From the IMG/VR virus record IMGVR_UViG_2617270947_000015: a stretch of 11,129 nucleotides of DNA, one strand, 5' to 3'. Made by a program: the position numbers and the translations under genes. This stretch comes from a virus (taxonomy: Duplodnaviria; Heunggongvirae; Uroviricota; Caudoviricetes). A model generated the notes under the pieces. It ran no database searches and had not been told where the DNA came from. It worked only from the letters and a program-made list of their open reading frames with translations. The stretch's first letter is position 1. The number at the start of each line of letters is the position of its first letter. Of this stretch, positions 1-11,129 are shown piece after piece.

Positions 1-327
1 TCACTTTTTCCAGAGGCGGTCGAACTCCGCCTTCGCAAAATAAGCGGAAGCCTGGCGAAGGATATCGTTACTGCGGCGCAGTTCACGATTTTCACGTTCC
101 AGCTCTTTCAGACGCTGACGTTCAGCGGTGGTGAGCCCTCCATCACCGCCCCCGGTATCCCGCTCATGCTGGCGAACCCAGACACGCAGAGTCTCCGGCG
201 TACAGCCAATCTTTGGAGCAATGGAACAAATTGTCGCCCATTGTGAGTCATATTCGCTCTGACTTTCCAGAACCATACGGACTGCCCGTTGACGGACTTC
301 GGGGGAAAAACGAGTATTTTTAGTCAT
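1..327 (-). CDS. IS3-family transposase OrfA (108 aa, HTH protein)
   Basis: Translation [21 protein letters not shown]...[32 protein letters not shown] has the typical IS3-family OrfA HTH plus leucine-zipper layout. It lies 54 bp inside the terminal inverted repeat. Confidence 0.85.
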
Positions 328-381: not shown

Positions 382-716
382 GGGGCTTCGTTCGTCCTGA
401 AAAACAGAATCTGCAAAATTTTGCCGAAATTATTCCGGTTATTTCCGGCCTTACTGGCGGGAGTGAAACCAATATTGTTAACGCCAGAGCGTTGCAGATG
501 TTTGATGATAAAAAGGGAGTAAATTTAACTTACACCCCTGACGGCAATCAGAATATGAGCATTATCTCTGAGTCAGGTTTCTACAAACTAATAAAAACAA
601 AAAGCGCCCCGTTGCCGGAGCGCCTTTGTGAACAATTAACCTACTGCGCAAAAAATGAATCTGAGCAGTGGGATTATATCAACCATGTGGAGAAGCGCCA
701 CAATTGCCGAATAACG

Positions 717-747
717 GGCAAAACAAAGGCCACCCGCTACGGTGGCC
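717..747 (-). terminator. Rho-independent terminator for the leftward small-gene operon
   Basis: Perfect 7-bp stem GGCCACC (728-734) / GGTGGCC (741-747) with a 6-nt loop. On the minus strand it is followed by TTTGTTTTG. It sits 80 bp downstream of the minus-strand ORF that ends at 827. Confidence 0.6.
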
Positions 748-826
748 CCTCGACACAAGCTACACGTTATCCCCAACGCATGAGCATTGCCAACAATGCC
801 ACATTTGCGGCTGGTGGGCAATGCAA

Positions 827-1000
827 TCAGTCTGGTTCAGTTCGTTGCCATACCTGCAATGAGCGCTTTTCCCTGTACTCTTTAAGGAATTGCTCAAGGG
901 CAAAAGCACATGGCGCGAATCTTTCTGATTCATGCTCTATCTTTCTGCGCCGTCTTTTCCGTGCCGGTGATAATGTTTTGGTCAATTCTTTATCGGTCAT
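827..1000 (-). CDS. Hypothetical small basic protein (57 aa from the second ATG)
   Basis: Lys/Arg/Glu-rich translation MTDKELTKTLSPARKRRRRKIEHESERF.... An AGGA lies about 9 nt upstream of the ATG at 1000; the ORF-track start at 1015 has no Shine-Dalgarno. It is second in the leftward operon and is followed by the terminator at 717-747. Confidence 0.5.
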   Translation of the reverse strand: MTDKELTKTLSPARKRRRRKIEHESERFAPCAFALEQFLKEYREKRSLQVWQRTEPD

Positions 1001-1057
1001 TGTGTTGTCCTGCATAGCAATGCGCCGTAGTTACTCACACCACGGCGCTGGTGATGG

Positions 1058-1237
1058 TTACTCCTGCTCTTTGGCCTTGCGGCGCTGGCGGCGTTTGATT
1101 TCGCCGCGCATGGCTGCGTTTATAAACTGTCCCGTGCTTTCGCCTTCTTCTTTCACGTTCTCCATGCCTTCAATAATTTCATGGGCAATACGTGCAGTTA
1201 CAGATTGTGATTTTGCATTCTTTGGACCCGTTGCCAT
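1058..1237 (-). CDS. Hypothetical small protein (59 aa); candidate regulator, first gene of the leftward operon
   Basis: The internal ATG at 1237 is preceded on the minus strand by GAGGGG at good spacing (GAGGGGTTAAAC-ATG). Translation is MATGPKNAKSQSVTARIAHEIIEGMENVKEEGESTGQFINAAMRGEIKRRQRRKAKEQE. It sits directly beside the operator-bearing divergent promoter region. The ORF-track start at 1276 is probably too long. Confidence 0.5.
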   Translation of the reverse strand: MATGPKNAKSQSVTARIAHEIIEGMENVKEEGESTGQFINAAMRGEIKRRQRRKAKEQE

Positions 1238-1257
1238 GTTTAACCCCTCATGTTTTT

Positions 1258-1339
1258 GGTGTAAGACAATATACACGAAAAAAAAATATTTTGAAGGGTT
1301 GACGTGTAAGACACCATTGTTTTACATTGTGTCTTACAC
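1258..1339. promoter_or_regulatory. Divergent promoter region with three copies of an 11-bp operator-like motif
   Basis: GGTGTAAGACA at 1258-1268, GTGTAAGACAC at 1304-1314 and its exact inverse GTGTCTTACAC at 1329-1339. Rightward candidate promoter: TTGACG (1299-1304) and TACATT (1323-1328), 18-bp spacer. Leftward candidate on the minus strand: TTCAAA and TATATT around 1270-1297. The motifs overlap the spacer or sit just downstream of the -10 of both promoters. Confidence 0.55.
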
Positions 1340-1436
1340 CTTATTGATGAAAGGCACAGAAACGACGAAACCCCGCACTGTAGGAGCAGTAACGGGGCTT
1401 CTAACCACCAACGATAGCAACAGTATCGAGGTAGCT

Positions 1437-1637
1437 ATGAGAAATCATACCACACACCCGAAAGGGCGGGACTCGCACAACCTGAATAAATACATCTGGC
1501 GTTTTATCGCCCTGAGCACGGCACAACCGCGCGTGATTACCATTGAGGCCACCAGCGAACAGGAAGCACGCCAGCAATCTCCGGCTGGCTGCGTGATGGT
1601 ATTTGCTGCCCGTATTCGTCAGGGGGTAGGCTTATGA
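1437..1637 (+). CDS. Hypothetical protein (66 aa), first gene of the rightward operon
   Basis: GAGGT Shine-Dalgarno 5 nt before the ATG at 1437. Translation MRNHTTHPKGRDSHNLNKYIWRFIALSTAQPRVITIEATSEQEARQQ.... Its stop overlaps the next start (ATGA). The long 492..1637 track ORF is in the same frame but its upstream part looks non-coding. Confidence 0.5.
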   Translation: MRNHTTHPKGRDSHNLNKYIWRFIALSTAQPRVITIEATSEQEARQQSPAGCVMVFAARIRQGVGL

Positions 1638-2309: not shown

Positions 2310-2609
2310 ATGAAACTTAAATATTCTGGCTTAACTGCCAGTGGCAAAACTCGCACTAAATTCATGCGCGGTGATATTTACCGCGACCAGTACGGCGGCA
2401 CGGTAATGATTAAGGGCGTGGAGGAACGGCGCGTAACCTACCGTCGTGAAGGCTACGAATATGATTGCGTGATGCCTGTTTATCAGTTCGATCGTGATTT
2501 TTCTCTGGTGCAGGCCGTACCGCGTAACGTGCCCACCAGCAGGGAGAAAGCACGCGCCAATATTCAGGAAATAAAAAAGATGCTTAACGTATTCAGGGGT
2601 AAGAAATGA
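2310..2609 (+). CDS. Hypothetical protein (99 aa) immediately upstream of and coupled to the primase gene
   Basis: GGAGA Shine-Dalgarno upstream; its stop overlaps the primase start at 2606. Translation MKLKYSGLTASGKTRTKFMRGDIYRDQYGGTVMIKGVEERRVTYRREGYEYD.... Confidence 0.6.
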   Translation: MKLKYSGLTASGKTRTKFMRGDIYRDQYGGTVMIKGVEERRVTYRREGYEYDCVMPVYQFDRDFSLVQAVPRNVPTSREKARANIQEIKKMLNVFRGKK

Positions 2610-4360
2610 AACTGGCACCGAACGTAAAAAAACAACCACGCGGAATAAAACACAAAGACACAGAGGTAATTATTTTCGCGGGTAGTGATGCGTGGTCACA
2701 TGCAAAACAGTGGCAGGAGCAGGACGGCCCCGCATCCGGCGATAATGTGCCGCCTGTGTGGCTTGGGCCAAATCAGCTTGCCGAACTTGATGCGCTGAAA
2801 ATTGTTCCGGATGGGAAAAAGCGCGTAAGGCTGTACCAGGCCGGAGAACTGGATTTAGTGGAGACCAAAAAGATTGGTCAGAAGCTGGCGGCGGCAGATA
2901 TTCAGGACGCAAATTTTTACCCTGATGGTATGCACGGTCAGAAGGTGGAGAACTGGCGCGAATATCTGGCCCGTGAGCGCCAGAATCTTTCTGATGGTCT
3001 GGTCATTGAGCTTCCGGTAAAGCAAAAGGCGCAACTTTCGCAGATGGCGGACAGTGAGCGCGCGCAGCTGCTTGCCGATCGCTTTGATGGCGTTTGCGTA
3101 CATCCTGAAAGTGAAATCGTTCACGTATGGCGCGGCGGGGTATGGTGTCCGGTCAGCACAATGGAACTTAGCCGCGAAATGGTGGCGATCTATTCAGAGC
3201 ACAGGGCCACTTTCAGCAAGCGCGTAATCAATAACGCCGTGGAAGCGTTAAAAGTTATTGCCGAACCAATGGGCGAGCCGTCCGGCGATTTGCTGCCGTT
3301 CGCCAATGGTGCGCTTGACCTGAAAACGGGGGAATTTTCCCCGCACACGCCGGAGAACTGGATCACCACGCACAACGGCATTGAGTACACGCCACCAGCA
3401 CCAGGGGAGAACATCCGCGATAACGCGCCAAACTTTCATAAATGGCTTAAGCACGCAGCCGGAAAAGACCCGCGCAAGATGATGCGTATATGTGCCGCGC
3501 TGTACATGATTATGGCGAACCGGTACGACTGGCAGATGTTTATTGAGGCCACCGGAGACGGCGGGAGCGGTAAAAGTACATTCACGCACATAGCCAGCCT
3601 TCTGGCAGGGAAACAGAACACGGTAAGCGCTGAAATGACATCGCTTGATGATGCTGGTGGACGTGCGCAGGTTGTCGGGAGTCGTCTTATCGTCCTAGCT
3701 GACCAGCCGAAATATACAGGCGAAGGAACGGGCATCAAGAAAATCACGGGCGGTGACCCCGTGGAAATTAACCCGAAATACGAAAAGCGTTTCACGGCTG
3801 TAATCAGGGCGGTGGTGCTGGCGACCAACAATAACCCGATGATATTCACCGAACGGGCCGAAGGTGTGGCACGTCGTCGCGTGATTTTCCGTTTCGACAA
3901 TATCGTCAGTGAGGCCGAAAAAGACAGGGAGCTACCGGAAAAGATCGCGGCTGAAATCCCTGTCATTATCCGCCGATTGCTGGCGAACTTTACCGACCCT
4001 GAGAAGGCACGGGCTTTACTACTGGAACAGCGTGACGGTGATGAAGCACTGGCAATAAAGCAACAGACGGATCCGGTTATTGAGTTTTGCCAGTTCCTGA
4101 ATTTTCTGGAGGAAGCGCGCGGCCTGATGATGGGGGGCGGTGGCGATTCAGTGAAGTACACGACCAGGAACAGCCTTTACCGCGTCTATCTGGCGTTTAT
4201 GGCATACGCAGGCAGGAGCAAACCGCTAAACGTAAATGACTTTGGAAAGGCTATGAAGCCTGCCGCAAAAGTTTACGGACATGAATATATTACGCGGAAA
4301 GTTAAGGGGGTAACGCAGACTAACGCAATAACAACAGACGAGTGCGACGCGTTTTTATAA
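2606..4360 (+). CDS. Satellite/phage replication protein: P4/D5-family primase-helicase-like NTPase (584 aa)
   Basis: Walker A GDGGSGKST and Walker B-like RLIVLAD motifs in the C-terminal half, with the overall D5_N / P4-family primase C-terminal (SF3 helicase-like) layout. It is followed immediately by an iteron array. The N-terminal ~300 aa are of unclear domain identity. Confidence 0.85.
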   Translation: MKLAPNVKKQPRGIKHKDTEVIIFAGSDAWSHAKQWQEQDGPASGDNVPPVWLGPNQLAELDALKIVPDGKKRVRLYQAGELDLVETKKIGQKLAAADIQDANFYPDGMHGQKVENWREYLARERQNLSDGLVIELPVKQKAQLSQMADSERAQLLADRFDGVCVHPESEIVHVWRGGVWCPVSTMELSREMVAIYSEHRATFSKRVINNAVEALKVIAEPMGEPSGDLLPFANGALDLKTGEFSPHTPENWITTHNGIEYTPPAPGENIRDNAPNFHKWLKHAAGKDPRKMMRICAALYMIMANRYDWQMFIEATGDGGSGKSTFTHIASLLAGKQNTVSAEMTSLDDAGGRAQVVGSRLIVLADQPKYTGEGTGIKKITGGDPVEINPKYEKRFTAVIRAVVLATNNNPMIFTERAEGVARRRVIFRFDNIVSEAEKDRELPEKIAAEIPVIIRRLLANFTDPEKARALLLEQRDGDEALAIKQQTDPVIEFCQFLNFLEEARGLMMGGGGDSVKYTTRNSLYRVYLAFMAYAGRSKPLNVNDFGKAMKPAAKVYGHEYITRKVKGVTQTNAITTDECDAFL

Positions 4361-4373
4361 TTTTTTGTAATTG

Positions 4374-4600
4374 CTGTCTACCCTGTCTACCTGAGTAAAG
4401 AAAAATACATTTAATTCAGTGCATTAAGTTAGGTAGACAGCCTTTTTTTACTGTCTACCCACTATCTACCCTCTCTACCTGATTTTACCTGAATCAGACA
4501 GGGAGGTAGACACGGGGTAGATAGTGGATAAAAGCACTCTACCCCGCTGAAAGCCGCGCCATTACTGGCATGAGGGCCACTAAGGTAGATAAGGTAGACA
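4374..4600. repeat. Iteron array, putative replication origin
   Basis: At least 11 copies of an 8-mer TGTCTACC / GGTAGACA (variants TATCTACC, GGTAGATA, CTCTACC) in both orientations, e.g. 4376-4383, 4384-4391, 4432-4439, 4452-4459, 4463-4470, 4505-4512, 4517-4524, 4584-4591, 4593-4600. Non-coding and directly downstream of the primase-helicase gene. Confidence 0.8.
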
Positions 4601-4648
4601 AGGGGAGGCACAACTCAAAACTTTTTAAACGAGGGGGTAAAAATAAAT

Positions 4649-4927
4649 ATGCACACTTCAGGGAAATTTAATAAATCACTCAAAAAACGCAGAGACAGAA
4701 CAGAACCGAAATATCGCGCGTTAGACATGACAGAGCACGCTTTAAAGGTGGCAATCAGAACGATAGACCGCCACGCGGGGGAAGGATACGCGAAAGCACA
4801 TCCCGAACTGATAAGCGCATTCATGACCACGACGGCGGCAAATTTTGCCACGCTGACAGAGCGGGAGATTGCCGAAGCGGAACAGGTAACAACCATCAAC
4901 GTTAAAACCGGAGAGGTGGAATCATGA
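4649..4927 (+). CDS. Hypothetical protein (92 aa)
   Basis: GAGGGGG upstream of the ATG at 4649. Its stop overlaps the SSB start (ATGA at 4924). Translation MHTSGKFNKSLKKRRDRTEPKYRALDMTEHALKVAIRTIDRHAGEGYAKAHPEL.... Confidence 0.55.
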   Translation: MHTSGKFNKSLKKRRDRTEPKYRALDMTEHALKVAIRTIDRHAGEGYAKAHPELISAFMTTTAANFATLTEREIAEAEQVTTINVKTGEVES

Positions 4928-5346
4928 CAGCACAGATAGCAGCTTACGGGCGGCTGGTGGACGACCCGCAGGTAAAACAGACCAGCAAGGGCACACCGAT
5001 GACGCTGGCGCGTATGGCGGTCCCCCTTCCGTGCAGCCAGGCAGATGACGGAACGGCGACGATGTGGTTATCCGTCCTGGCATTTGGCAGACAGGCCGAA
5101 GCACTGGAAAGGCACCGCAAGGGTGAACTCCTGAGCGTGGCGGGTAACATGCAGATCAGCCAGTGGACTGGGCAGAACGGAGAAACGCGGCAGGGCTGGC
5201 AGGTTATCGCAGACAGTGTAATCAGTGCGCGAACGGCGCGACTGGGCGGCAAAAAAGGTCAACAGGGCCAGGCTACTGACGCGCTGAACAGGGCAAAACA
5301 ACAGGCGGGGAATGATGATCCGTACGGGGATAACATACCGTTTTAA
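4924..5346 (+). CDS. ssb: Single-stranded DNA-binding protein (SSB-like, 140 aa)
   Basis: GGAGAGG Shine-Dalgarno. OB-fold-like core (LSVLAFGRQAEALERHRKGELLSVAGNMQISQWTGQNGETRQGWQVIADSV) followed by a Gly/Gln-rich linker and an acidic C-terminal tip DDPYGDNIPF, resembling the SSB DDDIPF tail. Confidence 0.8.
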   Translation: MTAQIAAYGRLVDDPQVKQTSKGTPMTLARMAVPLPCSQADDGTATMWLSVLAFGRQAEALERHRKGELLSVAGNMQISQWTGQNGETRQGWQVIADSVISARTARLGGKKGQQGQATDALNRAKQQAGNDDPYGDNIPF

Positions 5347-5362
5347 GCGACGAGAGACAGAA

Positions 5363-5384
5363 GCCGGAGCAATCCGGCTTTTTT
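5363..5384 (+). terminator. Rho-independent terminator after the replication operon
   Basis: Stem GCCGGA (5363-5368) / TCCGGC (5373-5378), loop GCAA, then TTTTTT (5379-5384). Nearly identical to the hairpin at 7804-7826. Confidence 0.7.
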
Positions 5385-5450
5385 ACGGGTCCTCCTGGCG
5401 GGGTGGGCCTGAACACGGGGCGGGAAGCGCGGAAAAAAGCGCATTTTTGT
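5385..5450 (+). other. Degenerate cos-like sequence (direct, diverged copy of the cos site at 7827-7900)
   Basis: ACGGGTCCT...ACGGGGCGGGAAGCGCGG...GCATTTTTG aligns with ACGGGTCCTTTCCGG...ACGGGGCGGCGACCTCGCGGGTTTTCGCTATTTATG of copy A, but with many substitutions inside the cosN-equivalent. Confidence 0.5.
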
Positions 5451-5565
5451 GATTTTATCGTCATCATCATCATGAGCGTAATTTATTGTTTTTAATTGTT
5501 TTGATGCAAAAAAGATGATGGTTGTGGTTAATTTTCGTTCGACATCTTTGCAGGCAGATAAAAAA

Positions 5566-5602
5566 GCCCGATAAGGTCAGAGGTGGCTTATCGGGCTTTT
5601 GC
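5566..5602. terminator. Strong hairpin flanked by A/T runs on both sides (potentially bidirectional terminator)
   Basis: Perfect 10-bp stem GCCCGATAAG (5567-5576) / CTTATCGGGC (5588-5597), preceded by AAAAAA and followed by TTTTG. It lies in a ~400-bp stretch with no convincing ORF. Confidence 0.6.
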
Positions 5603-5677
5603 ATATGAGGCTTTTTGGTGCACTGACACACATGAGCGGGATCATCATTTCATAATTTGCAACACAACTCAATATCA

Positions 5678-5726
5678 TTGCACAAAACGCAATCCTGATT
5701 ATAATCAGAGCTGGATGAACATCCAG
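5678..5726 (+). promoter_or_regulatory. Candidate promoter of the capsid operon with an operator palindrome at the predicted start
   Basis: TTGCAC (5678-5683), 16-bp spacer, perfect TATAAT (5700-5705). A perfect 7-2-7 palindrome CTGGATGAACATCCAG (5711-5726) follows immediately downstream of the -10. Confidence 0.5.
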
Positions 5727-5761
5727 TTATGATTTTTTAAGTCGAAGAGGAATTTCTTACT

Positions 5762-5968
5762 ATGGCTGAAGAGAAAAAAGGCGGTGTTTCGGTGTACATA
5801 AGCCCCGAAATCGTGGAGGTGCTCAAGCAGCGCCACAAAAAAAACTATGAGGCTGGCGTGGCGGCTGGACTGGATCCGCTGATGACGCCGGAGCCGTCGA
5901 TAGGTTCACTTGTACGCTCTTATTTACTTGCGGCGCTTGGGATGCATAAAAATTATGGGGGTGAATAA
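5762..5968 (+). CDS. Hypothetical small protein (68 aa), translationally coupled to the major capsid gene
   Basis: GAGGAA Shine-Dalgarno; its stop TAA overlaps the capsid gene ATG at 5968 (TAATGG). Translation MAEEKKGGVSVYISPEIVEVLKQRHKKNYEAGVAAGLDPLMTPEPSIGSLVRSYLLAALGMHKNYGGE. Confidence 0.55.
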   Translation: MAEEKKGGVSVYISPEIVEVLKQRHKKNYEAGVAAGLDPLMTPEPSIGSLVRSYLLAALGMHKNYGGE

Positions 5969-7023
5969 TGGCAGGCAAAGCAACGGCACTTAACACTAAC
6001 CAGCTTTTCATGTACCTGAATCGCGGGGATATTGCGGATTTTAAATTCAGCCCTCTGTTTACTACGCTGTTTTTCCCGAACGTGGCGACATTCAGCACGC
6101 AAAACATCATGCTGGATACCCTGGACATTGAAGAAGTCACCATGTCGGCGTTTTGTTCGCCTATGGTGGGTAGCCAGGTTCAGCGCGATAAAGGGTACGA
6201 AACCAGCACGATTAAACCTGGCTACATGAAGCCAAAGCACGAAATCGATCCAACGAAAACCATCATGCGCATGGCTGGAGAAGATCCGGCACAGCTTAAC
6301 GACCCTACCTATCGCCGTATGCGCCTGATTACTGGCAATATGCGCCGCCAGATAAACGCCATAAAAGCGCGCGTGGAATGGCTGGCGGTAAATGCGGTAA
6401 CGACCGGAAAAAACATCATTGAGGGCGAAGGCATAGAGCGCTATGAAATCGACTGGAAGATACCGGAAAAAAACATCATAGAGCAGGCCGACGGGAAAAA
6501 ATGGTCAGAGCAGGACAAAGAAACCCACGATCCAATCTATGATATCGAACTATACGCCGATCAGGCTGGTTGCCCCGCAAACGTCATGATTATGGGCGCT
6601 GAGGTATGGCGAACGTTACGCAGCTTTAAAAAATTCCGTGAGCTGTACGATCTTTCCCGTGGTTCAGAATCCGCCGCCGAACTGGCCTGTAAAAACCTGG
6701 GCGAAGTGGTGAGCTTTAAAGGCTATCTTGGTGATCTGGCCCTTATCGTCTATTCCGGCAAATACACTGACAGCGATGGTACCGAAAAATATTTCCTTGA
6801 GCCTGATTTGCTGGTCCTGGGCAACACCAACAATAAAGGGCTGGTGGCCTATGGTGCGATAATGGATCAGGAAGCGGTAAGAACGGGCGCAACACAAAAC
6901 ATGTTTTACCCGAAAAACTGGATTGAGGACGGCGATCCGGCGATTGAGTACGTGCAGACACACAGTGCACCGCAGCCGGTACCGGCAGATATTCGCAAAT
7001 TTGTTACCGTCAAAATTGGTTAA
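5968..7023 (+). CDS. Major capsid protein, lambda gpE-like (351 aa)
   Basis: Collinear similarity to lambda gpE as I recall it: FKFSPLF..LFF, TIKPGYMKPKHEIDP, EDPAQLNDPTYRRMR, KWSEQDKETHDP, LRSFK, SFKGYLGDLALIVYSGKY, LVLGNT, YPKNWIEDGDPA, with similar length. Strong GGGGGTGA Shine-Dalgarno. Confidence 0.85.
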   Translation: MAGKATALNTNQLFMYLNRGDIADFKFSPLFTTLFFPNVATFSTQNIMLDTLDIEEVTMSAFCSPMVGSQVQRDKGYETSTIKPGYMKPKHEIDPTKTIMRMAGEDPAQLNDPTYRRMRLITGNMRRQINAIKARVEWLAVNAVTTGKNIIEGEGIERYEIDWKIPEKNIIEQADGKKWSEQDKETHDPIYDIELYADQAGCPANVMIMGAEVWRTLRSFKKFRELYDLSRGSESAAELACKNLGEVVSFKGYLGDLALIVYSGKYTDSDGTEKYFLEPDLLVLGNTNNKGLVAYGAIMDQEAVRTGATQNMFYPKNWIEDGDPAIEYVQTHSAPQPVPADIRKFVTVKIG

Positions 7024-7035
7024 CGGGGGGATTCT

Positions 7036-7371
7036 ATGGACACTCCATACATTGAGTTATTTGCAGGCAGTCAGCAGGTCGCCACGACGCTGGTACATTT
7101 TGCCGCTGATGCTGGCGTTATTCAGGAATTTACCCCGCTGATGCTGGCAGACAATGGCGAGTTTAAGCCGTGGGATGGTCAGGAATCTGGCAAGGCTGTT
7201 TATCTGACCTCGTACCCTGTGGACACGTCAAAGCAGAAATCAGCACAGTGTTACAAGACGGGGATTTTCAATATTGCCGCCGTTAACTGGCCTGAGAGCG
7301 TCGACACCGATGCGAAAAAATGCGCCGCCTTTGCGGGTTCTGGCGTATCCGTTCAGCCGCTGGCCCGATAA
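7036..7371 (+). CDS. Head decoration protein, lambda gpD-like (111 aa)
   Basis: Same length class as lambda gpD with shared motifs TPLML, WDG, YKTGIF (lambda YKSGTF), WPE, DAKK.AAFAG. GGGGGG Shine-Dalgarno. Adjacent to the gpE-like gene. Confidence 0.75.
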   Translation: MDTPYIELFAGSQQVATTLVHFAADAGVIQEFTPLMLADNGEFKPWDGQESGKAVYLTSYPVDTSKQKSAQCYKTGIFNIAAVNWPESVDTDAKKCAAFAGSGVSVQPLAR

Positions 7372-7383
7372 GCAGGGGGAACG

Positions 7384-7797
7384 ATGGCAACGAATGAAAG
7401 CGTCATGACGCTACCGCTGGCGAGTAAATTTAAAGCCGAAGCGCGGGCAATGGCTGACAGAGGTTTATCAACCTACGAGGCCGTATATCAACTCAACAAA
7501 CTGGAAGAGCAGGACAAGCCGCGCGCTGATGCGATTATGGCGCTTCATGAACATAACGACTATCAGCCGCTGTTACGTGCAATGGCAAACGTGCCATGTA
7601 TTAGCGTCGATAATGCTCGTGAAATCCTGAACATGACCATAGAGCAGGAGCGCCCAAAGGTTGCGCCGGAGCTTACCGCAGCCTTTGAAAACTTTATGGA
7701 CATGCACAGCCCGAAAGCCGTATCACCCGGCATGGCATACGACGGCAGAAACCAGGGCGATGAAGGCGACGTCGATCGCATACTGAAAACCATCTGA
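7384..7797 (+). CDS. Hypothetical protein (137 aa), last gene of the capsid operon, immediately upstream of cos
   Basis: GGGGGAACG Shine-Dalgarno. Translation MATNESVMTLPLASKFKAEARAMADRGLSTYEAVYQLNKLEEQDKPRADAIMALHEHNDYQPLLRAMANVP.... The terminator hairpin and cos site follow directly. Confidence 0.6.
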   Translation: MATNESVMTLPLASKFKAEARAMADRGLSTYEAVYQLNKLEEQDKPRADAIMALHEHNDYQPLLRAMANVPCISVDNAREILNMTIEQERPKVAPELTAAFENFMDMHSPKAVSPGMAYDGRNQGDEGDVDRILKTI

Positions 7798-7803
7798 CAT
7801 AAG

Positions 7804-7826
7804 GCCGGAGAAATCCGGCTTTTTTT
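7804..7826 (+). terminator. Rho-independent terminator fused to the upstream edge of the cos site
   Basis: Stem GCCGGA (7804-7809) / TCCGGC (7814-7819), loop GAAA, then TTTTTTT (7820-7826). Confidence 0.7.
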
Positions 7827-7900
7827 ACGGGTCCTTTCCGGCATATGGACCCGTTACGGGGCGGCGACCTCGCGGGTTTTCGCTATTTATGACGTTTTTC
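7827..7900 (+). other. Lambda-type cos site (cosQ-cosN plus start of cosB), intact copy A
   Basis: ACGGGTCCTTTCCGG...GTTACG-GGGCGGCGACCTCGCGGGTTTTCGCTATTTATGA. The 12-nt lambda cohesive-end sequence GGGCGGCGACCT is exact at 7859-7870, and the flanks match the lambda right-end/left-end junction as I recall it. A Nu1-like gene follows, as in lambda. Confidence 0.85.
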
Positions 7901-7959
7901 CGTGAAGGTGACACCACCACCACTTGATTAATATTTAACCATGCGGTTAAGGTAACATT

Positions 7960-8400
7960 ATGATTGATAAAGCTTGTTTTGTAAGTCAGCAGGAAATAGC
8001 TGAACATTTCAAGGTTAACAGAACCACTATTCGCGCATGGACCAAACAGGGGATGCCGTATCTTAATGCGGATCGCGGAAAGTCTGGCGGTTATCACATC
8101 GGGCATACATTGCTTTGGTCTTCAGGTAAAAGCCGTCTTGAGGCCATCAGATATCACGTAGAAACCAGTGCGCTGGAAAAAATTATGTTTGCCAGGCTGC
8201 TTTCATCTGAGCGTGACGAGTACTCCAGTGAAGAAACAGAACATCGATTTGATGAAGGTTTGCAGATTTACGGCTATTCACCGGAAGATGTGAGCAAGGC
8301 ACGAAATAAAATGGCTGGCTTTCTGGCTGGGTGGCGTCATGCCGTAAGCGTTCGCCGTGCCAGCATGGAACAATCAGTCGTTACAGAACAGCAAAGTTAA
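7960..8400 (+). CDS. Small-terminase-like DNA-binding protein (lambda Nu1-like winged HTH N-terminus, 146 aa); candidate cos-recognition / packaging-redirection factor
   Basis: N-terminus VSQQEIAEHFKVNRTTIRAWTKQGMPYLNADRGKSGG aligns with lambda Nu1 VNKKQLADIFGASIRTIQNWQEQGMPVLRGGGKGN. It sits about 60 bp downstream of cos, in the lambda Nu1 position, but no large-terminase gene follows. Confidence 0.7.
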   Translation: MIDKACFVSQQEIAEHFKVNRTTIRAWTKQGMPYLNADRGKSGGYHIGHTLLWSSGKSRLEAIRYHVETSALEKIMFARLLSSERDEYSSEETEHRFDEGLQIYGYSPEDVSKARNKMAGFLAGWRHAVSVRRASMEQSVVTEQQS

Positions 8401-8430: not shown

Positions 8431-8580
8431 CAATACAACAACCACGTATTTTTTTAAAACTATTTGATTCAATTAGCATTTTTTTATTTTTAGCATCAAA
8501 AAAACACTATCAGGTTGTTGTATTGCTCTTTATTTTTACTTAGTTATCAAATGGATATGACAAACAATTAAACAACAACC
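8431..8580. repeat. AT-rich non-coding region with three copies of a GGTTGTTGT-type motif (candidate cosB-like protein-binding sites for the inverted cos copy)
   Basis: CAATACAACAACC at 8431-8443 and its perfect inverse GGTTGTTGTATTG at 8513-8525, 69 bp apart, plus AAACAACAACC at 8570-8580. The sequence between them is extremely AT-rich. Confidence 0.5.
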
Positions 8581-8595
8581 TCCCTCTAAAAAAGC

Positions 8596-8663
8596 TCATA
8601 AATAGCGAAAAACCGCGAGGTCGCCGCCCCGTAACGGGCCATAATTCCAGGAAGGACCCGACG
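8596..8663 (-). other. Second lambda-type cos site in inverted orientation (copy C)
   Basis: Minus-strand reading is GGGTCCTTCCTGGAATTATGGCCCGTTACG-GGGCGGCGACCTCGCGGTTTTTCGCTATTTATGA. The reverse complement of the 12-mer, AGGTCGCCGCCC, is at 8618-8629. About 65 bp are near-identical to copy A, but this copy lacks the upstream terminator hairpin. Confidence 0.8.
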
Positions 8664-8693
8664 ACACCAGACTATCAGAACGATGGGGGCACA

Positions 8694-9668: not shown

Positions 9669-11129
9669 TTATTCATCTTTCGGCGCAGAATGCTGGCGAC
9701 CAAAAATCACCTCCATCCGCGCACCGCCCAGCATGCTCTCTCCGGCGACGATTTTACCCTCATATTGCTCGGTGATTTCGCGGGCTACCGCCAGCCCTAC
9801 ACCTTGCCCAGGGCGTAAAGTATCAACCCGTTGACCACGGTCGAAAATGACCTCTCGCTTGCTTAATGGAATACCGGGGCCATCATCCTCGACCACAATA
9901 TAGAGATGCTCGTCGGTTTGCCTTGCAGAAATTTCGACAAACTCGAGGCAATATTTACAGGCATTATCCAGCACGTTGCCCATCACCTCGACAAAATCGT
10001 TCTGCTCACCGACAAAGCTGATCTCTGGCGAAATATCGAGAGAGATATTGACCCCTTTGCGTTGATACACTTTGTTCAGCGCTGAGGTGAGATTGTCCAG
10101 CAGTGGGGCGACCGGATGCAGCTCGCGGCTGAGCAATGTCCCGCCGCGCATACTGGCACGATGCAGGTAGTAGCCAATTTGCTGTGAAATGCGGCTGATT
10201 TGCTCCAGCATTACCGGCTCAGCATCACTGACGCTCATCTTTTCACTACGCAGAGAACGCAGCGTACTTTGCAGCACCGCCAGTGGCGTTTTCAGACTAT
10301 GGGTCAGGTCGGTGAGCGTCGTACGGTATTTGTCGTAACGTTCGCGTTCACTTTTTAACAATCGGTTCAGGTTTCGTACCAGACTGGTCAGTTCTCGCGT
10401 TGTGGCTGGATTGAGCAATTCGCGGTTATGTTCTTCCAGTTCGCGGACTTCTTTTGCCAGGGCTTCGATGGGGCGTAAACTCCACCAGGCGGCGACCCAC
10501 AGCAGCGGGATCACTAACAGCAGATTGGCTGAGAGCACATAGATAAACCAGCTCCAGACCATATAGGAACTTTTTAGCTCCACCGGAATGGTATCCACCA
10601 CCACAATGGTTAATTTTGGCATCCGCGATGTTGCCGGGTAGACGTTTACTGCCACCGAGTGGGTCATCTCCGCGTCGTCATCATCTTCCCGCACTTCCTG
10701 CAACTGTTGCTGTATCGAATGATCTCCACTCAGCAAGAGGCTGGTATCGTTAACATCCGCTTCAATTTCATGAAAACCATTCGATTTCAGCCAGTCAGGC
10801 TGGATCATCTTCATCAGCCAGGGCACGTCACGTTGCGCCCATAAAAGCTGCCCGTTCTCATCATAAATTAGCGTCATGGTGGGGCTTTGCTTGTCGATAT
10901 TTTCGGGTAACTCGACATGCAACTTATTGTTTTCCCACTTCGCAAGGGTATAGAACAGATTGCTCTCGCCACGTAACAGCCGAAACGTAGTTTTATCGAA
11001 ACTGACGCTATAACCGATCAGCGCGACCATTCCGTAGGCAAGCGAAAGCACCAGTACTACCGCTGCCGTTGCCAACAGAAAACGTACCCGCAGCGAGAGC
11101 GGGAAAAAAAGACGCAGTAATTTTTTCAT
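9669..11129 (-). CDS. phoQ: Sensor histidine kinase PhoQ of the PhoP/PhoQ two-component system, complete, 486 aa
   Basis: Translation [83 protein letters not shown]...HSAPKDE matches E. coli PhoQ: two transmembrane segments, periplasmic sensor domain, HAMP, DHp histidine box ([12 protein letters not shown]) and HATPase domain. The start codon is the last three bases of the window. Confidence 0.97.

Follow-up and report, generated by a model that had tools for sequence, protein, structure and literature searches.

EcCICFT073, the island after which the family analysed here is named, carries two lambda-type cos sites, of which cos1 is required for transfer and is recognised by a complex of RppA and TerS, and deletion of cos1 and cos2 abolished lambda/phi80 transfer. 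Its capsid and decoration genes, c1499 and c1500, have been described (PMC6092414), and the origins of phage-inducible chromosomal islands (PICIs) were found 3' of the replication genes, with an AT-rich core (PMC6092414). The authors of PMC6739421 raised the question of why two different cos sites should occur in some PICIs. The lambda cosQ sequence used for reference is that of PMC6092414 (Fig S5), and PMC9026076 describes how R3, I1 and R2 are arranged in a lambda-like cosB. The main finding of this analysis is a third, heterologous cos site in this known island family, with a packaging function predicted from its sequence.

The whole stretch of DNA analysed (11,129 nt, hereafter the window) is a PICI of the EcCICFT073 family, with the gene order primase, ori iterons, SSB, lambda-E-like capsid, decoration protein, cos1, rppA, cos2 and phoQ. 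A fragment of IS3 (1-327, minus strand) and an ORF with an Icd-like domain (492-1637, plus strand) are followed by the genes for a DUF4222 protein (2310-2609) and a D5-type primase (2606-4360). Directly 3' of the primase gene, the iterons CTGTCTACC / GGTAGACAG form two opposed sets around an AT-rich core (4368-4605). Then come SSB (4924-5346), a 68-aa ORF (5762-5968), the capsid gene (5968-7023), a gpD-like decoration protein (7036-7371) and a 137-aa ORF (7384-7797). The cos1 site (7822-7959, plus strand), with the lambda cosN GGGCGGCGACCT at 7859, and cos2 (about 8540-8690, minus strand) match the published EcCICFT073 sites. The product of rppA (7960-8400, plus strand), directly downstream of cos1, matches the published EcCICFT073 RppA and is identical to it at the N-terminus. 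The island is flanked by phoQ (9669-11129, minus strand), the same as in CFT073. The 381-aa ORF at 492-1637 was considered as an integrase and rejected, its sole domain being the C-terminal Icd-like one; because it is not an integrase, the int/alpA end of the island is missing or interrupted in the window. A scan of the genome contigs with the capsid protein gave no match. Among the relatives, L098 (4638-5222, minus strand), L097 (4178-4735) and L104 (4448-4990) have a full Nu1-type small terminase gene in the place of rppA, in either orientation, and portal and/or S49 protease genes are present in L101 and L103, so the family grades towards capsid-forming islands.

The comparison of positions 5386-5760 with 5,426 complete E. 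coli genomes by megablast gave matches that split at the foot of a hairpin, termed T2 below. Query positions 1-164 (5386-5549) matched lambdoid prophages, between the lysis genes (Rz) and a terS of the DUF1441 type, and positions 175-375 (5560-5760) matched islands having other genes upstream. The phage-like block, here called cos3 (5378-5549, plus strand), was recognised as a phage-type cohesive-end packaging site by its homology to phage DNA upstream of terS. It was 85-93% identical to VT1-Sakai, eight Stx2 phages, CP-1639 and 1720a-02, with O157 prophages matching too, and 74-81% identical to mEp460, mEp213, mEp043 and others. In every case the phage match lay 70-190 nt upstream of terS, and in the O157 prophages, VT1-Sakai, mEp460 and 606R10 the homologous block ended approximately 70 nt upstream of that gene.

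The left part of cos3 resembles lambda cosQ and cosN. The cosQ-like motif TTTACGGGTCCTCCTG (5382-5397, plus strand; lambda: TTTACGGGTCCTTTCCGG) agrees with the lambda-like cosQ pattern (TTTACGGGTCC...), and TTTACGGGTCCTCCTGG (5382-5398) sits 33 nt before ACGGGGCGG, compared with 32 nt in lambda. The cosN-like core CACGGGGCGGGAAGCGCGG (5414-5432, plus strand; lambda: TTACGGGGCGGCGACCTCGCGG) retains the columns common to lambda, cos1 and cos2 (ACGGGGCGG...CGCGG; alignments A1 and A2). In alignment A2, which comprises cos3, cos1, cos2, two phages and lambda, the columns CGGGTCC-T-C-GG were invariant. The cosN core of cos3, GGGGCGGGAAGCG, nevertheless differs from that of lambda, GGGCGGCGACCT. The linear mEp460-like record LR595868.1 (mEp460_4F5) ends ...GGTGGGGTGGCCTG / ...ACGGGTCCTCCCGGTGGGGTGGCCTG and begins CCACGGGGCGGGAGCGCGG, and its terS starts at 189, as in lambda; therefore the ends of the molecule fall in the predicted cosN. 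Both ends are within 5 nt of the point that corresponds to the lambda nick, with the start 5 nt to its left; they are the ends as set by the depositors.

To the right of the cosN-like core there is a small GC palindrome, followed by a cosB-like part (5461-5521, plus strand) in which the R sites were assigned by position only. The sequence TCATCATCATCAT at 5461-5473 occupies the R3 position, and the inverted GATGATGG at 5514-5521 the R2 position. The AT-rich core is thus flanked by inverted CATCATCAT and GATGATGG (CATCAT/GATGAT), which corresponds to the R3, I1 and R2 positions of lambda. An IHF-like site on the minus strand (5479-5491) had one mismatch, and this match was not significant. The GC palindrome right of cosN and the inverted repeats around the AT-rich core are shared with lambda cos and with the cos regions of lambdoid phages such as VT1-Sakai, the Stx2 phages and mEp460, which go with a TerS of the Gifsy-2/DUF1441 type. 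Unlike the cos of VT1-Sakai and the Stx2 phages, cos3 belongs to a satellite island and is not followed by terS; it does not include approximately the last 65 nt that precede terS in the phages, and an equivalent of R1 may for this reason be missing.

The homology of the block to phage cos DNA, its position relative to terS and the location of the linear-record ends in the predicted cosN were observed directly, and on this sequence evidence we concluded that 5378-5549 represents a cos site of the VT1-Sakai/Stx2/mEp460 phage lineage. It would then be of the type used by those lambdoid phages whose small terminase is of the DUF1441/Gifsy-2 type (VT1-Sakai, several Stx2 phages, mEp460), and the terminase of that helper lineage would cut and package island concatemers at cos3. 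To judge from the sequence, it is rather probable that cos3 is used for packaging. The island belongs to the family of EcCICFT073, carries both of that island's sites, cos1 and cos2, and is likewise a PICI with helper-type cos sites (Fillol-Salom et al. 2018, PMC6092414; 2019, PMC6739421; Murialdo and Feiss 2022, PMC9026076). cos3 differs from cos1 and cos2 in being a third site, between ssb and the capsid genes, and in having a non-lambda cosN and a phage-like cosB instead of an Rpp-type cosB.

None of PMC6092414, PMC6739421 and PMC9026076 mentions cos3. The cos3 variant was found by megablast in 165 of the 5,426 complete E. coli genomes, and its carriers include the ExPEC strains IHE3034, UM146 and PMV-1 and a Nissle-type strain. 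Cos-like sequences of other types were seen between the origin and the capsid module in a Lelliottia island (L103, approximately 1930-2060) and a Salmonella island (L107, approximately 2130-2220). Both share CACCGAGGGT; L107 has GCGGGTCCTTCCTGG, and in L103 a stretch of 19 nt (CGCTATTTATGAAAATTTT) is the same as in lambda. It may be an ancestral trait to have a cos site between origin and capsid module.

On the left, cos3 adjoins T1 (5356-5385, plus strand), the terminator of the replication/SSB operon, which consists of AGCCGGAGCAATCCGGC and T6 and whose T-run overlaps into the cosQ-like motif. A T1-like hairpin, GGCCGGAGAAATCCGGC with T7 at 7803-7826, abuts the cosQ of cos1 in the same way. 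We compared 83 related loci that had the T2 hairpin and enough upstream sequence. In 21 of them, the window included, cos3 lies exactly between the T-run of T1 and the A-run of T2. It is missing from the other 62, where the hairpin follows about 6-8 nt after T1; in at least 55 of these 62 the hairpin immediately preceding T2 was T1 (AGCCGGAGCAATCCGGC and T6). The exact junctions of T1, cos3 and T2 were directly visible in the comparison. As cos1 and cos2 were also present in 12 of the 14 cos3-bearing loci long enough to tell, cos3 has been added to the other sites without displacing them. In the window, too, both lambda-type sites accompany it, cos1 upstream of rppA and cos2. CFT073's own island has perC at this place and is without cos3, so the published deletion of cos1 and cos2 says nothing on the third site.

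The right-hand element, T2 (5560-5600, both strands), is composed of an A-run (A6, 5560-5565), the left arm GCCCGATAAG (5566-5575), a loop of 11 nt (5576-5586), the right arm CTTATCGGGC (5587-5596) and a T-run (T4, 5597-5600). The GC-rich stem is a perfect 10 bp, or 14 bp counting the A·T pairs, and folds on both strands, with -19 to -24 kcal/mol on either one and about -20 to -23 kcal/mol for the hairpin alone. It was the sole perfect 10-bp stem with a loop of 3-12 nt in the window; dinucleotide shuffles contained 0.16 such stems on average, with at least one in 13% of the shuffles. The consensus terminator scan missed T2 because its loop limit is 8 nt. A stable GC-rich hairpin is present, with a U-tract 3' of the stem that is clear on the minus strand and marginal on the plus strand, where the tail is UUUUGCAU in the window and 2-4 U elsewhere.

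The first-pass annotation of 5451-5602 had described this hairpin, with A/T runs on both sides, as an orphan terminator in an ORF-free stretch, and much of that description stood. The perfect stem was confirmed at 5566-5596; its distances of about 200 bp from the replication-operon terminator and about 160 bp from the capsid ORFs were right, with T1 at 5356-5385 and the next ORF from 5762; and no conserved ORF was found between T1 and 5762. The ORFs at 5470-5631 (minus strand), 5583-5732 (plus strand) and 5273-5473 (minus strand) were rejected as genes, having no credible family match (the one from PHROGs for 5273-5473 was marginal, E 0.0013). Two others, a 49-aa ORF and a mini-ORF (5605-5655), were likewise dismissed, as their frames are broken by the T-run at 5611-5615, which varies from 5 to 8 T among relatives. 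As for the terminator being an orphan, the intrinsic-terminator anatomy was borne out and no protein gene ends there on the plus strand, but T2 looks orphaned only because cos3 sits between it and T1. T2 belongs to the capsid module and marks its left edge.

The hairpin was present in 80 IMG/VR loci and in several E. coli genomes. Among 53 distinct E. coli-type sequences the arms were invariant and the loop was variable, with at least seven versions of 10-12 nt. As 12 of the 14 pairs never varied in this set, no covariation was measurable within it, the stem being invariant. More distant islands were retrieved through capsid homologues (capsid protein 52-86% identical), and five more lineages had a hairpin at the place of T2 with unrelated stem sequences: TCCCCCGG / CCGGGGGA in L094, CCCGCCAGTCG / CGGCTGGCGGG in L097, GCCCCCC / GGGGGGC in L101, and further unrelated variants in L104 and L106. 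As to the check for conservation and covariation proposed in the earlier annotation, the hairpin is kept in related islands, without covariation in the E. coli-type set and with unrelated stems in the distant ones. The structural conservation of T2 was thus directly observed, and since unrelated stems occur at the same place, it is the structure that is kept, which favours a terminator over a sequence-specific protein site. In all six lineages there are A6-A9 before the hairpin and only 2-4 T after it, so that the canonical U-tail is on the minus strand. The strand preference of the hairpins is mixed across lineages: that of L104 reaches -19.6 kcal/mol on the minus strand versus -8.1 on the plus strand, and that of L097 favours the plus strand (-30.8 versus -21.1 kcal/mol).

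Several further features of T2 were noted. Its loop (5576-5586; also in L003, L015, L043, L052, L094 and L097) contains GAGG or GGAGG on the plus strand in 8 of 11 variants, which reads CCUC/CCUCCU on the minus strand and resembles an anti-Shine-Dalgarno sequence. The right arm with its T-run, GCTTATCGGGCTTTT (within 5586-5616), is repeated imperfectly 15 nt downstream as GCATATGAGGCTTTT, and the right arm of T1, ATCCGGCTTTT, is also similar to it. The 3' half of T1 (5372-5385) and the 5' half of T2 (5559-5572) are complementary at 13 of 14 positions, and alternative pairings are possible.

These results led us to the explanation that 5451-5602 would comprise two unrelated adjoining things inside an EcCICFT073-family PICI: the AT-rich, cosB-like half of cos3 (5451-5549) and the hairpin T2. 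T1, pointing rightward with its T6, and T2 would stand face-to-face, with cos3 filling the untranscribed gap between them. We hold with fairly high confidence that 5378-5549 is the putative packaging site cos3 and that T2 is a conserved intrinsic terminator at the edge of the capsid module. Judged by its sequence features, T2 very probably terminates transcription. It resembles bidirectional Rho-independent and face-to-face terminators in its GC stem, its A-run and T-run and its place at an operon boundary beside another terminator. It differs from Rho-independent terminators in a loop (11 nt) larger than usual and a short plus-strand U-tract, and there is no gene known on the strand with the best U-tail.

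The direction in which T2 acts is less certain. A leftward small RNA of approximately 70-95 nt (5637 to 5560, minus strand), started from a conserved extended -10 promoter, may have its 3' end at T2, with T1 and T2 as convergent terminators; we regard this as possible, at somewhat less than an even chance, and it refines the explanation given above and does not exclude it. The candidate leftward promoter (5644-5672, minus strand) has the -35 sequence TTGAGT (5672-5667), a 17-nt spacer and the extended -10 sequence TGaAATGAT (5652-5644), and is back-to-back with the capsid-operon promoter. From it, a hypothetical transcript of about 78 nt (5560-5637, minus strand) would end at T2 and U6, and that leftward termination of this transcript is the main role of T2 is only a tentative proposal. 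It is supported by the tail of U6-U9 on the minus strand in all six lineages, against a plus-strand T-run of 2-4, by the L104 hairpin, which forms far better on the minus strand, and by the promoter-like block, the best-conserved one of the T2-to-capsid intergenic region, which was invariant in the 53 distinct sequences (alignment A3). A minus-strand match to TTGAGT or TTGACT, 17 nt and TGnAATnAT was found in the window, L015, L004, L094, L097 and L098, six lineages in all, and beyond TTGAGT/TTGACT the sole variable base in the TGnAATnAT block is the weakly constrained -9 position. The predicted RNAs are 68-94 nt long and run from a 5' hairpin through an A/U-rich linker to T2 and its U-tail; the minus-strand fold had z = -4.4, and all sub-threshold Rfam matches were on the minus strand. 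The terminator loop of the predicted RNA often carries the CCUC/CCUCCU anti-Shine-Dalgarno-like motif.

On the other hand, the plus-strand fold of the same 82 nt was equal (z = -4.38), conservation within the region is lowest in the body of the RNA, and the 5' stem-loops, found in every lineage, did not surpass shuffled sequences in stability (z -0.7 to -2.4, with +0.5/+1.0 for two lineages) and were mixed in strand asymmetry. L104 and L106 have the A-run hairpin without the block, which could instead be an UP element or an activator site for the capsid promoter. No Rfam family reached threshold for the RNA: the best match in a local search was AgrB (23.1 bits versus a gathering score of 40), and Rfam 15 run on the whole window matched only ALIL, a frameshift pseudoknot at 1-46 within the IS3 transposase fragment, clipped by the window edge and below its gathering score (48.1 versus 50 bits). 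A literature search on the hairpin sequence, c1497-c1499 and the CFT073 sRNA/TSS maps found nothing usable. Alternatively, T2 would be a rightward back-up terminator in tandem with T1, shielding the capsid/packaging operon from transcription that runs on out of the replication operon, with no leftward transcript; roughly one chance in three describes our estimate for this reading. It accords with the spacing of T1 and T2, within about 8 nt in most islands, and with the Salmonella relative L097, where the T2-like hairpin is the sole terminator after the upstream gene and is better on the plus strand (-30.8 versus -21.1 kcal/mol). The UUUUGCAU after the stem is a usable U-tract, and an upstream A-tract strengthens forward intrinsic terminators. 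Against it, none of the lineages has more than a short or poor U-tract on the plus strand (2-4 T) while the A-run is always 6-9, and the plus-strand hairpin of L104 is weak.

The other readings fared worse. A short plus-strand RNA ending at the hairpin, from the promoter that the first-pass annotation had suggested in the AT-rich 5470-5560, agrees with the base composition and with the T4 tail, but 5470-5549 lies within the block homologous to phage cos DNA and turned out to be the cosB-like half of the site. No sigma-70-like site was found in 5470-5560, the plus-strand fold of 5440-5620 was unremarkable (z = -1.4), and the block is missing from 62 of the 83 loci that keep the hairpin, so a plus-strand small RNA starting there is not a conserved feature; we consider this RNA very improbable. 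What is left of the suggested small RNA is the possibility of one on the opposite strand, from 5644-5672. That the hairpin acts as a protein-bound DNA palindrome instead of an RNA structure, for instance as an operator or as a pair of cosB R sites recognised by terminase/Rpp, is hardly more probable: its arms are invariant in the E. coli-type set while the loop varies, and it lies approximately 150 bp from the cosN-like core, near the lambda R1 position, yet it is unchanged in the 62 cos3-less loci, distant islands keep it with completely different arms and the same A-run, and the phage cos regions have nothing similar at that position. Least probable of all is that replication of the island starts from the AT-rich, ORF-free stretch, with the hairpin as part of the origin. 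PICI origins do lie 3' of replication genes with an AT-rich core (PMC6092414), but here the iterons immediately follow the primase gene, at 4368-4605, and 5386-5600 has no iteron family and is homologous to phage cos DNA instead.

The capsid-operon promoter consists of TTGCAC, 16 nt and TATAAT (5678-5705, plus strand), and the region 5677-5738 is highly conserved. A palindrome, ATTGCA-N5-TGCAAT, imperfect in the window, lies over its -35 element. Directly after the promoter there is a leader hairpin (5706-5731) with a T6 run, in which two stem pairs change on both sides among the 53 sequences. This hairpin could be an attenuator or a target of antitermination, through which the late operon stays silent as long as no helper is present.

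Lambda OOP RNA is a short regulatory RNA that ends at a terminator. Among satellites, SviR of PLE is another such RNA (bioRxiv 10.1101/2022.04.08.487710). The predicted RNA of about 78 nt, if real, would be like both in its intrinsic-terminator end and in its position between early and late modules, and would differ from them in having neither a sequence or Rfam relationship nor an antisense gene overlap. It would be the first small RNA proposed for a Gram-negative PICI. It is doubtful, taken as a whole, that the replication/capsid boundary holds two undescribed elements, namely a third cos site of different specificity and a leftward small RNA of approximately 70-95 nt ending at T2; we are just as hesitant about the accompanying picture, in which the island would be packaged by a second lambdoid helper lineage including Stx-converting phages and the RNA would diverge from the capsid-operon promoter.

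With cos3 and the terminator T2 as the preferred reading, the arrangement demonstrates that a terminator can come to look orphaned through nothing more than an insertion between two terminators that face each other. This island variant carries three cos sites, the third of which matches a different helper lineage that includes Stx-converting phages. If cos3 works, one island would exploit helpers of two packaging specificities, by one route through Rpp and the lambda-type TerS and by another through a plain copy of the helper's own cos. This would widen the transfer range of the island and link its transfer to the induction of Stx phages.
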